From NCBI RefSeq assembly GCF_056746865.1, contig NZ_CM163382.1: 64,000 nucleotides of DNA; one strand, written 5' to 3'. Positions 25,529 through 37,751 of this stretch are shown piece by piece; the first letter of the stretch is position 1; every line of letters starts with the position of its first letter. The notes beneath the pieces are model-generated. The model searched no databases and was not told the DNA's origin. It saw only the letters and a program-made list of their open reading frames with translations. The translations under genes were made by a program, and so were the position numbers.

Positions 25529-25864
25529 ACAAAAACCTTACATTAACGCTGGTTATGTTTAGGGTGGCGTATATTAAGGTTTTTTATGAATTGTGACAGC
25601 TTTTTACCATTAATAGGTATGACTATTGCGGCACGTTATTTTTACACTGGTTATAAAAGTTGCCGTTTGCGTAGAATGTAGACAAAAGCGTGGTGTCAAG
25701 GAGGGGCGGTAAACGTCATAGTGAAGAGGAGTGGTGGCACCGATCAGGTCATCATGTAGTGTAAGCGTCTGGAGGAGGTGAGCAGGGGAGATCATTTTCC
25801 CCGTGCTGAACAAAAAGACGGCGTTGCTGTGGGTACAGGAAGGCTAACTTCATTTCTCTTTAGA

Positions 25865-26401
25865 TTATTTAAGTTTAATATTCAACCAGGAAATAAAGAA
25901 CGTTAAAATAACAAAGGAAAAAACAATCAAAGAGACATTCCTGAAAAATACGTGCTCATAAAAAAGATAAAAAACGTACAAAATTGGGCACGCAACTTTC
26001 AGGACGTTTATATGTTTAGAATTCTCTTTATCTTTAAAGTTAAAATTACATAAAAATATAAAGAAATATGAAAGCATGGCTGAAAACATCATTGATAAGG
26101 CGCGATATGGCAGTCCTGAATTAAAGGTTTCGACTCCTAATAATATTGTCGATAGCGTTGCAATTATAATTGCCACTTTTTTACTAGAGGTGAAAGTAAC
26201 GACAAAAAATATCAATGATATAAATAAGAAAGAAAAAAATATGTAAATATTTGTTGATATATGTACTTTATGAGGAACTGTAAAATAGGTATAACTGATT
26301 GTAATTATGATGGTAATTATTCTGTATAGCATGCATGCTAACAGGCCAATCAGTAGTTTGTTCGCAAATTTATAAGGGGATTCGCTATTGGTTGATTGCA
26401 T
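25865..26401 (-). CDS. Hypothetical polytopic membrane protein (178 aa), AT-rich
   Basis: Four to five strongly hydrophobic segments; very AT-rich codon usage; no recognisable catalytic motif. Confidence 0.4.
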   Translation of the reverse strand: MQSTNSESPYKFANKLLIGLLACMLYRIITIIITISYTYFTVPHKVHISTNIYIFFSFLFISLIFFVVTFTSSKKVAIIIATLSTILLGVETFNSGLPYRALSMMFSAMLSYFFIFLCNFNFKDKENSKHINVLKVACPILYVFYLFYEHVFFRNVSLIVFSFVILTFFISWLNIKLK

Positions 26402-26465
26402 GGTTATTATGCTCTTGAATTGTGTATTTTATTGGAATGTTTCTTGGTTAACTAAAACAATGCAT

Positions 26466-26894
26466 TTAATAGGTGGTGGTGTAAATATCAATGTCATACT
26501 CATTATCACAGACTACTATTACTCTACGAGTTATGTCAAAAAATAACGTTAAATCATAGGTTCCCTGTTCTCTGAAAATACTCTGCGCAAATGACGTGAA
26601 ATTATTCCCATTTATAACTATTTTTACTTTACCTTCATAGATAAGCCAGCAACGAAAACATTCAGCTGTACCAGATAATGTCACTATCTGACTGATTAGA
26701 AGATTTATATTTACCGGATGAGGTAAAAAAAGTCTGTCGTTGAGGCAATCAATATTATGTGTTTGATGAAACTCTTTTCTCATTAATGAAGAGTTATCAT
26801 ATAGCAGGGTTATACTAAACGAGTCAATTCCGTCAAGCTTTTGCATAAATTTGTTTGCTTTATAAATAAGCAACTTTGCTTGTGTTTTTGTCAT
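26466..26894 (-). CDS. Hypothetical protein (142 aa), AT-rich island gene
   Basis: ORF with consistent AT-rich codon usage, same strand and close spacing with neighbours; no motif recognised. Confidence 0.35.
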   Translation of the reverse strand: MTKTQAKLLIYKANKFMQKLDGIDSFSITLLYDNSSLMRKEFHQTHNIDCLNDRLFLPHPVNINLLISQIVTLSGTAECFRCWLIYEGKVKIVINGNNFTSFAQSIFREQGTYDLTLFFDITRRVIVVCDNEYDIDIYTTTY

Positions 26895-26921
26895 GATGGT
26901 GATCTTTTATGCAAGGGGGAA

Positions 26922-27368
26922 TTATTGGAATTCAAATGTTTTATATTCCTCTGTAATCATCTTTAAACTTAACATAGCCATGTCTCGGGTATCTTCATCA
27001 TCAGATTGTAGAGAAATATTTAATCCTTTAATTAAGGTGTTATCGGGAAAAGCCATTGCCAATAATGTACACCAACATCGGACACTTTTTATTGTCAGAG
27101 GATTTTCCAGTATGTTGGCGATATTTGAAGCTATAATGTTTTTATCACACTTGTACAAAAAATCTTCGACCAACTGATATACACCGAAGCCATCACCTTC
27201 CCCAAACGATTGTAAAAATAACGGTATGGCTTCTTCAGCAGGATTTGCAGAAAAATAAAGCCTTACATTGTTATATTTATTGATAAGTTCCTGAGTGATG
27301 TCATAATCATTTGGCATAGGTTGGTTTAGAGCAAGGAATGCTAATGCTTCTTTTTTAGTCATATTCAT
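26922..27368 (-). CDS. Hypothetical protein (148 aa), AT-rich island gene, possible immunity-type protein
   Basis: 27-nt spacing to the downstream gene; small acidic cytoplasmic protein; immunity role is inferred from context only. Confidence 0.35.
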   Translation of the reverse strand: MNMTKKEALAFLALNQPMPNDYDITQELINKYNNVRLYFSANPAEEAIPLFLQSFGEGDGFGVYQLVEDFLYKCDKNIIASNIANILENPLTIKSVRCWCTLLAMAFPDNTLIKGLNISLQSDDEDTRDMAMLSLKMITEEYKTFEFQ

Positions 27369-35906: not shown

Positions 35907-36017
35907 TTCATTTCCTTAGTTATCACAATTATCATCATAGCTATCTATAAACGTTAGTTTCCATAATATGCTATCCGTGTGCCCACTTTCCTTTAAATTA
36001 ACTGCTGGCCCGGGAGG

Positions 36018-37058
36018 CTATTCAAACGCCATTGAATCAAAGAGGACATTCCAGGCATTACCATCATAAATAGCAGCTCCTCTGGAACCACAAACCATCA
36101 TCACGGTCCCATCGGGTGAAACATCAATTCTTTTACTTAAAACGGCCACTTCAGGAGGGACGGGTTTATGTTTTGCATGCATGGCAAGCACCAGTTTGTC
36201 ATCTTCCAGCACCCAGATGCCATAATCACTGGCACACCAGAGACGTCCATCAAACCATCCCATGTCGAGGAATGGCATGGTCATTCCACCATGCGTAATT
36301 TGTGTCCATTGTTCATTGCGACCCTTCCATATAGCACCGTCAAAATCAGCAATATAAACAAATCCGTCACCGGCACAGCAAACTGTGTACAGAAGTTTAT
36401 TTGTCGGAAAAGGGAGTTGTTTCCATTGCTCACCATTAAAGTGATAAACCGTTCCCGTTCCGCCCACTGCATACATATCCGATTCGGAAAAACCAGATAA
36501 ATCTCGGAATCGACTTCTGGTTATTGCTTCTACCTTCCTATCTAACAATCCATCGGGGACAGGCAGGTATGTAGAATGTTCCCGCCAAATTTGGTGATCA
36601 ACACGTTTGTATATTCTGAAACCACTACCGATAGCGTAAACACTGTTTTCAATTCGTACTACTTTTATTATAACGGAAAACATATCGATAGAACCTGGTA
36701 TGAGTATATTTATACTTTCTTCTACTCCTTTGTATACATCTTCTTTATAACTCATAACATCACGGTCCTGACTGACCATAACATATTCGGTCTGAGATGG
36801 GGGCCAACCAGAAGATATAGTCATCAGAGATATCCCTGTTGCGCGACGACCATATATGCGATATTTTTTGGAGAGGGTAAACGTAATGGAAATTAATCTC
36901 TTTTCAGGTGGGTAAAAAGGGTTTTCATATTCGGCATGCTCCTCATCTACCACTTCAATCAATGAAAGACCTACTTTTCCATGCTCGTAACCATAGGTGC
37001 AGTCATATATATAAAAGCCTTTGAGATATTTCTGATACGATTCTATATCTATGATCAT
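36018..37058 (-). CDS. Repeat (beta-propeller-like) family protein, paralog A (346 aa); candidate immunity protein
   Basis: Same architecture as paralog B; N-terminal half divergent, C-terminal half near-identical at the nucleotide level. Confidence 0.6.
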   Translation of the reverse strand: MIIDIESYQKYLKGFYIYDCTYGYEHGKVGLSLIEVVDEEHAEYENPFYPPEKRLISITFTLSKKYRIYGRRATGISLMTISSGWPPSQTEYVMVSQDRDVMSYKEDVYKGVEESINILIPGSIDMFSVIIKVVRIENSVYAIGSGFRIYKRVDHQIWREHSTYLPVPDGLLDRKVEAITRSRFRDLSGFSESDMYAVGGTGTVYHFNGEQWKQLPFPTNKLLYTVCCAGDGFVYIADFDGAIWKGRNEQWTQITHGGMTMPFLDMGWFDGRLWCASDYGIWVLEDDKLVLAMHAKHKPVPPEVAVLSKRIDVSPDGTVMMVCGSRGAAIYDGNAWNVLFDSMAFE

Positions 37059-37083
37059 TTATCACCTCAAATATCTTCATCGT

Positions 37084-37383
37084 TTATAACACCCCCATCA
37101 CCTGCATTGATTTTTGCAGAGTTAAATCACCACAGGTATAAGCGTCTTGGTAAGCTTTATCCAGTTGCGCTTTCAAACAAGATTTATCACAACCGTACAT
37201 TAATGCAACCTCATCAATTACCATACATCTGGCATCTTTATAACTCATTTCTTTTCCAAAATGCTTTTCTTCTATTAGAGTGCCTGTAGCTGAGTGTAAT
37301 GCACCATGTGAACCAGTACGATTGTCTTTTCCTTCCAGACAAATTGTAGGCGCTTTGCCTTCGGTATATTCCCCCCCCAGCAC
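37084..37383 (-). CDS. Small hypothetical protein (99 aa), possible orphan toxin-domain cassette
   Basis: ORF 25 nt upstream of paralog A; begins with GTG inside a G8 homopolymer; no motif recognised. Confidence 0.3.
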   Translation of the reverse strand: MLGGEYTEGKAPTICLEGKDNRTGSHGALHSATGTLIEEKHFGKEMSYKDARCMVIDEVALMYGCDKSCLKAQLDKAYQDAYTCGDLTLQKSMQVMGVL

Positions 37384-37751
37384 TTTCTTGTTGGATATTT
37401 GCTACGGGGCATTCTTTATATTAATTTTTCTTCCTTATGGAGTATCTCTGTTTGACACTTTAAAGTCTCTATGAGAATTATAAGATTTTTTTTAAAATAA
37501 TACGTTTTCAGATTTAGCAACAGGATTTTCACTCATACGATTAATATACGATATTTTAATCTCAAAAATATATTTGGCTGGTGAAGCTATCTGGGGTGTA
37601 TATTCACACCACATATATTATCAAAAGGCAGTTACGCTACCGCCATACCCTGATAAAACTCACCATCTGCACGAAACGGATTTTACGCTTTTTCTTCCGG
37701 CGAAATATCAAATTCTCAATTCAAATAATATCTATTGCGTTATATGACCTA

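Follow-up and report, generated by a model that had tools for sequence, protein, structure and literature searches.

The genes cusS and nfrB adjoin directly in Escherichia coli K-12 MG1655, with a 149-bp spacer between them, as the first-pass annotation of this DNA had stated. In the stretch analysed here, 64,000 nucleotides of contig NZ_CM163382.1 (assembly GCF_056746865.1; below, the window), the place of the spacer is taken by a block of about 12.1 kb. What is this block made of, and could it still serve its host? The first-pass annotation described a graveyard of polymorphic toxins that may retain orphan immunity, and this reading is supported. From sequence comparison, the block appears to be a disarmed effector-immunity island of a type VI secretion system (T6SS), lying in the nfrB-cusS site, whose surviving genes would serve as orphan immunity genes. 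We give this reading a probability of roughly 0.65.

Immunity genes and effector remnants beside cusS

The half of the island next to cusS contains three related genes, here called ImmA, ImmB and ImmC, interleaved with remnants of effector genes:

31716-32027, minus strand: C-terminal fragment of a thiolase-like (PRK06147) gene (NF004798, E = 1.6e-8, model positions 272-344 of 349)
32120-32756, minus strand: 3' part of ImmC (I_c), which is a contiguous 336-aa gene in relatives (WP_000587531)
34087-34466, minus strand: 5' part of ImmC (I_c), severed from the 3' part by IS2
34498-34812, minus strand: Delta-E_c, in which codons 1-91 (PAAR-like) run out of frame into the final ~13 codons
34866-35906, minus strand: ImmB, intact, 346 aa, ortholog of Escherichia whittamii I_b, Shine-Dalgarno sequence AAGGAA
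35941-35964, minus strand: Delta-E_b, an effector shrunk to a 7-codon open reading frame (METNVYR, then stop) by an internal deletion of ~1.5 kb
36018-37058, minus strand: ImmA, intact, 346 aa, predicted seven-bladed beta-propeller, ortholog of I_a, Shine-Dalgarno sequence GAGGTG
37084-37432, minus strand: Delta-E_a, C-terminal tip of a Tox-GHH2 effector (PF15635, E = 7.8e-5, 99-aa open reading frame)

The three Imm genes are the paralogous repeat proteins noticed at first pass, and structure prediction identifies them as beta-propellers. The AlphaFold2 (AF2) model of ImmA (predicted local distance difference test score, pLDDT, 93.7) is all-beta with ~28 strands, and its Foldseek matches are seven-bladed propellers of the WD40, RACK1 and Ycf48 kinds. 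ImmA, ImmB and ImmC matched no Pfam, NCBIfam, PADLOC or PHROG family, and PDB sequence searches with ImmA and the toxin tip were empty. Homologs form 85 clusters in a 90%-clustered database, and a profile search of 1.84 billion representatives gave 781 50%-identity clusters at E <= 1e-30. The invariant residues of the family all lie at positions 158-336, and one protein of the family carries a fused SUKH-1 (SMI1/KNR4) domain.

Intact versions of the array are found in relatives. In Ralstonia solanacearum the order is vgrG, DUF6484, DUF2169, a 311-aa protein, a 538-aa effector combining PAAR-like and Tox-GHH2 domains, a propeller and a HEAT protein. Citrobacter koseri carries, within its T6SS core cluster, a thiolase (343 aa), effector E1 (523 aa), I1, effector E2 (538 aa), I2, a HEAT protein and a thioredoxin (Trx); this arrangement also occurs at the yafV/ivy T6SS locus of rare E. 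coli strains, ET350 among them. The closest relative is present on contigs of E. whittamii, as thiolase-E_a-I_a-E_b-I_b and, separately, as the C-terminal part of E_c followed by I_c-HEAT-Trx-ISAs1. The window matches these contigs in the same order, with identities of 81% for the tip plus ImmA, 84% for ImmB (nucleotides, to positions 7705-8849 of the E. whittamii locus L022), 94% for the PAAR fragment (5' 273 bp), 95-96% for ImmC (nucleotides, to I_c) and 94% for the thiolase fragment (93.6% at the nucleotide level). In a genome scan for propeller loci that used a 9-sequence alignment, the propeller gene stands directly 3' of a Tox-GHH2 effector or tip at 11 of the 17 assessable species-representative loci. 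The propellers thus follow Tox-GHH2 effectors in relatives, in agreement with the proposal at first pass that the material is decayed toxin and immunity DNA with no intact toxin.

The remnants differ in what has been lost. Delta-E_c, in a 104-aa open reading frame (ORF), retains part of a PF13665 domain (E = 2.8e-9, model positions 4-63 of 108) and is 89% identical to the N-termini of C. koseri E1 and E2; at its junction, ~34541, the alignment shifts from L022 position 3713 to position 583 of locus L033. The Delta-E_b junction, ATGGAAACTAACGTTTATA-GATAGC, aligns to the start and the end of E. whittamii E_b (L022 6136-7671). For Delta-E_a, homology to E. whittamii and C. koseri starts at 37428-37432 and the 5' end is truncated. 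When compared with the intact 523-538-aa effectors, the tip begins after GQTGHHL and retains SHGALH only. The catalytic signature of Tox-GHH2 is defined as s[AGP]HH plus HxxxH (PMC3482391). Because homology begins downstream of GQTGHHL, Delta-E_a lacks s[AGP]HH and keeps only HxxxH.

Set against an effector of the PefD/Tse7 type, the window has codons 1-91 of the complete DUF4150/PAAR-like domain (~130 aa), no Tox-GHH2 domain with both s[AGP]HH and HxxxH, and, of the linked genes vgrG, DUF6484, DUF2169 and thiolase, a 69-residue thiolase fragment. Judged by these motifs, the remaining toxin fragments are catalytically dead. The alignments place three separate deletions in the array, one per effector, and all three immunity ORFs were spared. 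In relatives, RefSeq nevertheless attaches the names 'HNH/endonuclease VII fold toxin-2' (37084-37383) and 'PAAR-like domain-containing protein' (34498-34812) to dead remnants, and such names could mislead effector surveys.

The thiolase fragment, a 103-aa ORF, is 88% identical in amino acids to residues 267-335 of the C. koseri thiolase. PRK06147 thiolase-like proteins are proposed T6SS adaptors (PMC7714669) and mark the 'synteny type A' group of DUF2169 clusters (PMC11883445). In Kluyvera georgiana (locus L029, 2-2483), as at window positions 31777-31979, a short piece from the 3' end of the thiolase-like gene comes after an E2-I2 pair. Because this order recurs in Kluyvera and the window, the 3' end of the thiolase gene may travel with displaced type-A cassettes and serve them as a recombination handle, by analogy with Rhs core fragments on orphan Rhs toxins.

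ImmA and ImmC show purifying selection in comparison with their orthologs. ImmA shares 75% of its amino acids with C. koseri I1 and 82% with E. whittamii I_a, with ratios of nonsynonymous to synonymous substitution rates (dN/dS) of 0.095 and 0.13, respectively. For ImmC against I_c, dN/dS is 0.13 at a dS of 0.11 (21 synonymous and 11 nonsynonymous changes), and the ribosome-binding site of ImmB is intact after the E_b deletion. ImmA and ImmB are ~58% identical over the 5' 540 nt and 98% over the 3' 500 nt, with a sharp switch at nt 556-610; the proteins are 40-63% identical at residues 1-180 and 93-100% at residues 181-346. This mosaic therefore points to gene conversion or partial duplication, and the converted halves have since accumulated 15 synonymous and 3 nonsynonymous differences. 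The ImmA-ImmB DNA is 100% identical across the other island genomes listed, sequence type 69 (ST69) strains included, and the ImmA and ImmB protein accessions are the same in enteroaggregative E. coli (EAEC) 042 and the other island genomes inspected.

The comparisons show the history of the array. Its half of the island descends from three tandem pairs, each consisting of a gene for a PAAR-like/DUF4150 ('PIPY') Tox-GHH2 nuclease and a beta-propeller immunity gene, the kind of array that lies downstream of vgrG-DUF6484-DUF2169-thiolase in 'type A' clusters, as with PefD/PefE of Proteus and Tse7 of Pseudomonas. Three separate deletions took the toxin DNA and left each immunity gene with a ribosome-binding site. 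Since the deletions are specific to the effectors, immunity would have been retained by selection, at least historically. ImmA, ImmB, the SUKH-3 protein of the neighbouring Rhs segment, ImmC in relatives and possibly the small proteins p2 and p3 would act as orphan immunity proteins. If expressed, as cytoplasmic proteins, they would each bind and block the cognate nuclease or deaminase-like toxin domain arriving from a competitor's T6SS, and the protection would cover a lineage that has itself stopped deploying these toxins. To the claim that the island immunity genes protect their host at the present day we assign slightly less than an even chance.

For the genes to be orphans, their effectors must be absent from the same genomes. 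In island-bearing genomes only the fragments themselves occur, with no other PAAR-like or thiolase locus of the kind, and coverage of E_b stays at or below 25% in every complete E. coli genome. On these two grounds the immunity genes are true orphans, with the cognate weapons in other species. The window thus shares with orphan immunity arrays the presence of immunity genes without a cognate effector in the same genome, and it lacks the mobile element with its own recombinase or integrase that belongs to acquired interbacterial defence.

An experimental precedent exists in Proteus mirabilis, in which PefD (PAAR + Phasin2 + Tox-GHH2) is neutralised by PefE, a 320-aa predicted bladed propeller whose specificity is set by residues 136-158 in the variable N-terminal half; an orphan copy, pefE2, has transposase pseudogenes and an rhs fragment for neighbours and protects against the pef operon of another strain (PMC5714391). 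The window resembles the pef operon in its effector architecture, in a predicted propeller of ~320-346 aa directly 3', and in an orphan immunity copy near transposase pseudogenes and an rhs fragment, the likeness being one of architecture and gene order. By the features of a PefE-type protein, the Imm proteins have a predicted beta-propeller fold and a length of ~320-350 aa, their paralog differences concentrate in the N-terminal half, and the gene stands directly 3' of a PAAR-like Tox-GHH2 effector in relatives and of an effector remnant in the window. In ImmA and ImmB the divergent half corresponds to the PefE specificity region. Unlike the pef operon, the window has no effector and no hcp-vgrG-DUF2169, and it has three immunity paralogs, not two. 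Proteus did not appear in the cluster names of the ten ~320-aa profile matches, and the pattern used in the genome scan retrieved no Proteus. A 2012 survey of polymorphic toxins gave no immunity family for Tox-GHH2 and saw no beta-propellers among immunity proteins (PMC3482391).

The second parallel is the vgrG1b cluster PA0095-PA0101 of Pseudomonas aeruginosa, with Tse7 (DUF4150 + Tox-GHH2) and Tsi7, of which the window keeps thiolase, DUF4150 and Tox-GHH2 pieces. The Tse7 cluster, the 'synteny type A' DUF2169 clusters and the Tvp accessory complexes have been described (PMC4067218, PMC9846239, PMC11883445, PMC13373197), and the type-A order vgrG-DUF6484-DUF2169-thiolase-like-effector-immunity-HEAT/Arm is common to the C. 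koseri, E. whittamii, R. solanacearum and ET350 relatives. The C-terminal toxin of the Pseudomonas locus is polymorphic (GHH2 or deaminase). Tse7 measures 315-386 aa, whereas the parents of the window remnants have 523-542 aa and a long helical linker, and the window lacks the delivery genes of the Pseudomonas cluster. No P. aeruginosa protein occurs among the top 50 structural neighbours, and the likeness to Tsi7 is one of gene context.

Like orphan arrays of Vibrio cholerae and Bacteroidales, the window has immunity genes without cognate effectors and several specificities in one cluster. Clusters of acquired interbacterial defence in Bacteroidales were reportedly described by Ross et al. 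in 2019. Orphan immunity arrays in T6SS auxiliary clusters of V. cholerae are mentioned in a passage of PMC6730261 that cites Kirchberger 2017. The model for such arrays is effector-immunity replacement in which older immunity genes are kept. In the window, by contrast, effectors were lost by deletion in place, not by displacement, and there are only IS elements and no recombinase.

The Rhs segment, small genes and insertion sequences

The remainder of the island, together with the insertion sequence (IS) inside ImmC, comprises the following features:

25865-26401, minus strand: hydrophobic ORF of 178 codons, a doubtful gene, unannotated in RefSeq relatives
26466-26894, minus strand: p2, intact hypothetical gene, 142 aa, annotated as WP_000169380
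26922-27368, minus strand: p3, intact, predicted all-helical HEAT-like protein of 148 aa, a candidate immunity protein
27396-27941, minus strand: p4', 181-codon gene inactivated by one nonsense codon (codon 81)
27975-28178, minus strand: p5', 3' remnant of a gene severed by ISEc1 (dN/dS 0.18)
28179-29470, minus strand: ISAs1-family (ISEc1/H-rpt) copy 1, intact transposase of 378 aa (NF033564, E = 6.5e-123)
29471-29673, minus strand: Rhs YD-repeat fragment, 67 codons from the 5' end of an orphan cassette (Rhs C-terminal toxin), cut by ISEc1
29691-30152, minus strand: SUKH-3 orphan immunity gene, intact, 153 aa (PF14433, E = 5.2e-10)
30155-30329, minus strand: Rhs C-terminal toxin tip, last ~57 codons, cut by ISAs1 copy 2, with a CAE...PxCxxC motif
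30330-31620, minus strand: ISAs1-family (H-rpt) copy 2, transposase with an internal stop, 97% identical to copy 1
32757-34086, minus strand: IS2 inside ImmC (NF006918, E = 1.4e-213; NF006928, E = 4.4e-83)

The middle of the island is the tail of an array of Rhs orphan toxins, in which a toxin tip and SUKH-3 are followed by the beginning of the next cassette, all between two ISAs1/H-rpt copies. SUKH-3 homologs in Xenorhabdus and Salmonella lie directly 3' of Rhs C-terminal toxins. The YD fragment scores 17.2 bits with TIGR01643 (cut-off 15.8). In Salmonella the SUKH-3 homolog is followed by a 258-aa RHS_repeat+AHH orphan, whose N-terminus shares 90% identity with the fragment. The toxin tip lies in a 66-aa ORF whose first codons come from ISAs1 copy 2, and it aligns with the C-terminus of a 350-aa Xenorhabdus Rhs orphan, past DPLGL, where the toxin is ~127 aa long. 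Because the call is based on the CAE...PxCxxC motif and on weak matches to the YwqJ-deaminase Pfam family (E = 0.3-1.2), the tip is termed deaminase-like only, and the resemblance is suggestive. Of a full Rhs element (a core ending in PxxxxDPxGL, toxin and immunity), a YD fragment, a tip and an intact SUKH-3 gene are left, along with two copies of the associated H-rpt element (ISAs1 family).

Arrays of Rhs orphan toxin and immunity genes with H-rpt elements were reportedly described in Salmonella and E. coli by Koskiniemi et al. in 2014. A Salmonella array (locus L018) is syntenic with the tip, SUKH-3 and Rhs fragment of the window (84% identity for SUKH-3, 90% for the next Rhs fragment), and H-rpt/ISAs1 copies flank the segment as in arrays of this kind. 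In contrast to the Salmonella and E. coli arrays, the window lacks the main rhs gene, and both neighbouring toxin cassettes are cut by ISAs1. Rhs arrays that bear SUKH-3 also contain SymE_toxin (PF08845) genes on the opposite strand, in Salmonella enterica at L018 6740-7048 and 12037-12339 and in Xenorhabdus at L020 1890-2213.

The 2.4 kb next to nfrB is a small-gene array with a swappable cassette that also occurs in Escherichia albertii, at 88-92% nucleotide identity. The swappable slot is that of p2, where E. albertii has an immunity-type CdiI_N (PF18228) gene instead. No Pfam, NCBIfam, PADLOC or PHROG match was obtained for p2, for p3 or for the 178-codon ORF. p3 has 19 homolog clusters, in Enterobacterales only, and a dN/dS of 0.16 against E. 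albertii. Its AF2 model (pLDDT 89) has eight helices, and its Foldseek matches to alphaRep/HEAT proteins are weak (E > 0.02), so that no functional call is made for it. In a tblastn comparison with the intact 181-aa protein of E. albertii, p4' shows 84% identity over 180 residues with a single in-frame stop; its first 80 codons have a dN/dS of 0.24. The E. albertii homolog of p5' extends at least 128 codons further upstream. An array of immunity cassettes is a plausible reading of this segment. The 178-codon ORF has a dN/dS of 0.63 and its E. albertii counterpart is cut to 130 codons; on this evidence, its candidacy as a membrane immunity gene was rejected.

The IS elements record continuing rearrangement. 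ISAs1 copy 1 gives a 1,292-bp match to the EDL933 copy, and copy 2 is divided into ORFs of 156 and 218 aa, marked 'internal stop' in RefSeq relatives. No target-site duplications were found at either copy (1,291-1,292 bp each). Strain CB6837 has one ISAs1 copy and no SUKH-3 segment, so the ISAs1 copies are recombinogenic. Elements have also entered them, as seen in strain M7424, where a group II intron (ltrA) lies within a hybrid ISAs1 copy (L002 4690-7717), and in EAEC 042, where IS1B lies within copy 2 (L045 11501-13414). The limits of IS2 and its ~5-bp duplication were taken from comparison with CFSAN061770, whose island differs from that of the window, IS2 aside, by 1-2 substitutions. None of the complete genomes searched has IS2 at the ImmC site, and any one record covers 84% of the island query at most. 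Since IS2 has already destroyed ImmC in this strain, decay is continuing. Another island carrier has IS1 within an intergenic region.

The nfrB-cusS junction and the distribution of the island

Homology to K-12 ends at window position 25670 and restarts at 37774, within the last codons of cusS. EDL933-type islands are common with the window over 25671-25786 and homologous again from 37751. Because of these breakpoints, the limits of the island were set at 25671-37751/37773, close to the first-pass estimate of a ~12-kb AT-rich island at 25529-37751. The GC content of 25671-37751 is 0.406 (0.387 without IS elements), against 0.476 and 0.531 in the flanks. In the sliding-window check proposed at first pass (500 bp, 25.5-37.8 kb), the island gave 0.29-0.47, the IS2 stretch at 33.0-34.0 kb 0.53-0.57 and the flanks 0.50-0.57. 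Two end segments belong to no gene:

25671-25786, no strand: island stub beside nfrB, 116 bp, common to all occupied versions of the junction and present in 947 genomes including EDL933
37433-37751, no strand: AT-rich spacer of unassigned origin from the effector-immunity array to cusS, GC 0.325

The spacer has no homology to EDL933, K-12 or E. whittamii, and a terminator-like hairpin 3' of cusS lies within it (37644-37627, minus strand). As the first-pass annotation had it, every credible island gene, the three IS elements included, is carried on the minus strand; on the plus strand a 56-aa ORF is the sole one annotated in RefSeq relatives. The contents listed there (two H-rpt elements, an IS2, an Rhs fragment, a PAAR-like fragment, a SUKH gene, three paralogs and small ORFs) were each verified, and the ORF and domain survey found no intact large toxin gene in the island. 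Nor is there a vgrG or DUF2169 ORF between nfrB and cusS. PADLOC (E <= 0.01, ten island proteins) and PHROG gave no match to defence-system or phage models. The island contains no tRNA, Rfam family or integrase, its recombinase-type genes being the IS transposases only (ISAs1 twice and IS2), and a tRNA- or integrase-type genomic island was ruled out on that account.

Of 5,426 complete E. coli genomes searched with three parts of the island, 152 carry the right part (34480-37760), 151 the left 2.4 kb and 147-148 the SUKH-3 segment. The presence/absence mapping proposed at first pass thus shows an island that is rare, not core, with about 148-153 carriers whose copies are all at least 99% identical. 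Carriers include EAEC 042, with identical protein accessions, and an O15:H18 ST69 strain; in E. coli UMN026, ImmC is UniProt B7N9G9. The first-pass view of an insertion at a conserved junction holds in part: K-12 has no island, but the junction is polymorphic and only 2,326 of the 5,426 genomes (43%) have it uninterrupted in the K-12 form, the remainder being broken at one and the same nucleotide.

At this site EDL933 and strain 120899 carry vgrG, a DcrB/Eag-like gene, an RHS gene of full length, genes for immunity and for orphan toxins, and ISAs1, which in EDL933 directly follows the stub. In enterohaemorrhagic E. coli (EHEC) the nfrB-cusS locus has been described as the 'vgrG1 island' (PMC7216683), and this description was the sole find in a literature search for the site. 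The EDL933 island (z0707 vgrG1, DUF1795/EagR, rhsF z0705, rhsG z0702, ISAs1; PMC7216683) occupies the same junction and shares with the window the nfrB-side stub, the cusS 3' end, a terminal ISAs1/H-rpt element and orphan Rhs toxin-immunity pieces. In EDL933, vgrG, the gene for the Eag chaperone and an Rhs of full length remain, whereas the window has none of these and instead contains PAAR-like Tox-GHH2 remnants and the left small-gene segment. Because the interrupted junctions are broken at the same nucleotide, the EHEC vgrG1-Rhs island lies there and E. albertii shares the 2.4 kb next to nfrB, sequence comparison identifies nfrB-cusS as an old, polymorphic hot spot for T6SS islands.

The adjoining gene, cusS (37752-39212), differs at its 3' end, with 480 aa in K-12 and 482 aa in island-bearing or EDL933-type genomes, and the segment next to the island boundary is only 92% identical to K-12. 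These two differences are compatible with the uninterrupted K-12 junction as a secondary deletion, which it could be.

Elsewhere in the window, a hokE/sok type I toxin-antitoxin locus is duplicated at 51913-54233 (Rfam sok at 51981-52137 and 53834-53988) with an IS186-like element (372-aa transposase, 52352-53470) between the copies; in the otherwise 100%-identical strain 118UI the copies are 502 bp apart without the IS. Positions 1-15500, upstream of appY-ompT-envY, hold lambdoid prophage tail genes (tape measure, gpJ, tail fibres), assigned by collinearity with 118UI (96.7-99.8% identity), in whose annotation gpJ is frameshifted.

Orphan immunity weighed against its alternatives

Several observations weigh against a protective role, and in part they favour a reading of the island as pure genomic debris, an unexpressed remnant heading to deletion in which immunity genes are intact only since the clone is young. 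IS elements strike the immunity genes themselves, with IS2 splitting ImmC in this window, IS5 disrupting ImmA in GN05505 and IS3 at the 5' end of ImmC in SW070912. The SUKH-3 segment is deleted in 4 genomes, in CB6837 by an IS-IS deletion, p4' has its nonsense mutation, in strain 10035776-3 the island is down to ~280 bp beside cusS, and the 43% of genomes with the K-12-type junction have no island there at all. A promoter scan found 21 sigma-70-like sites, fewer than the 35.6 of shuffled sequence, and no coding-strand site upstream of ImmA, which leaves no convincing promoter; there is also the terminator-like hairpin after cusS, and AT-rich islands are often silenced by H-NS. Present-day selection is not measurable because all copies are so nearly identical, and the low dN/dS mostly reflects history before effector loss. 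Immunity by PefE is allele-specific, three residues being decisive (PMC5714391), so that the 75-82% identity of ImmA to the nearest partner immunity proteins is no guarantee of protection. Mere debris, on the other hand, does not explain why three independent deletions hit the effectors and spared three immunity ORFs with their Shine-Dalgarno sites, nor the dN/dS of 0.13 between ImmC and its 95%-identical E. whittamii ortholog, and the ImmA and ImmB accessions and DNA (100%) are identical across the island genomes listed. We consider debris unlikely.

At the other extreme, the ImmA-ImmB-ImmC array could be a locus for defence between species that phylogroup-D E. coli (EAEC 042, ST69/UMN026) actively maintain. 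Selection would then have discarded useless toxins and kept every antidote, making the array an enterobacterial counterpart of acquired interbacterial defence, and the N-terminal specificity halves would stay divergent while gene conversion homogenises the propeller core. If true, this would mean that the host withstands Tox-GHH2 attack in the gut by Citrobacter, Kluyvera, E. whittamii or Proteus, and it would define a large uncurated family of beta-propeller immunity proteins, whose 781 clusters have no Pfam entry. This stronger claim we find doubtful. Much less probable is that the fragments form a silent reservoir of cassettes, recombination substrates for an active T6SS or Rhs locus elsewhere, as for Rhs orphan toxins. 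Homology handles are present in the thiolase 3' fragment, the 5' 273 bp of the PAAR-like gene and the Rhs YD fragment, and Kluyvera likewise has a thiolase fragment after E2-I2; but no toxin-coding part is left to donate (E_a is without GHH, E_b and E_c are deleted), and a second PAAR-like or thiolase locus that could receive it is absent from island-bearing genomes. Least probable of all is some other accessory function for the propellers and small genes, such as anti-phage defence or a surface or regulatory role. The propellers, p2 and p3 are without a Pfam or NCBIfam family, WD40-like propellers occur in many systems and p3 is only weakly HEAT-like, which would leave room for it. Against it, the island gave neither a PADLOC or PHROG match nor an integrase, tRNA or Rfam element, in distant taxa the propellers stand strictly next to Tox-GHH2 effectors, one propeller carries a fused SUKH-1 domain, and PefE is an experimental precedent.

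A disarmed island with orphan immunity genes remains the reading that we prefer. Orphan immunity after effector loss is already known, and the island is a well-resolved further example in a medically relevant lineage. It offers a nucleotide-level view of a lineage disarmed by three deletions with its antidotes kept, in a clone that includes EAEC 042 and ST69 extraintestinal pathogenic E. coli. It also exposes an annotation problem, namely a beta-propeller immunity family without a curated model. The cognate effectors being defined, in E. whittamii and C. koseri, the island constitutes a clean natural experiment on whether selection keeps orphan immunity genes. If these genes are expressed, resistance to contact-dependent killing by gut Enterobacteriaceae would be a colonisation trait.

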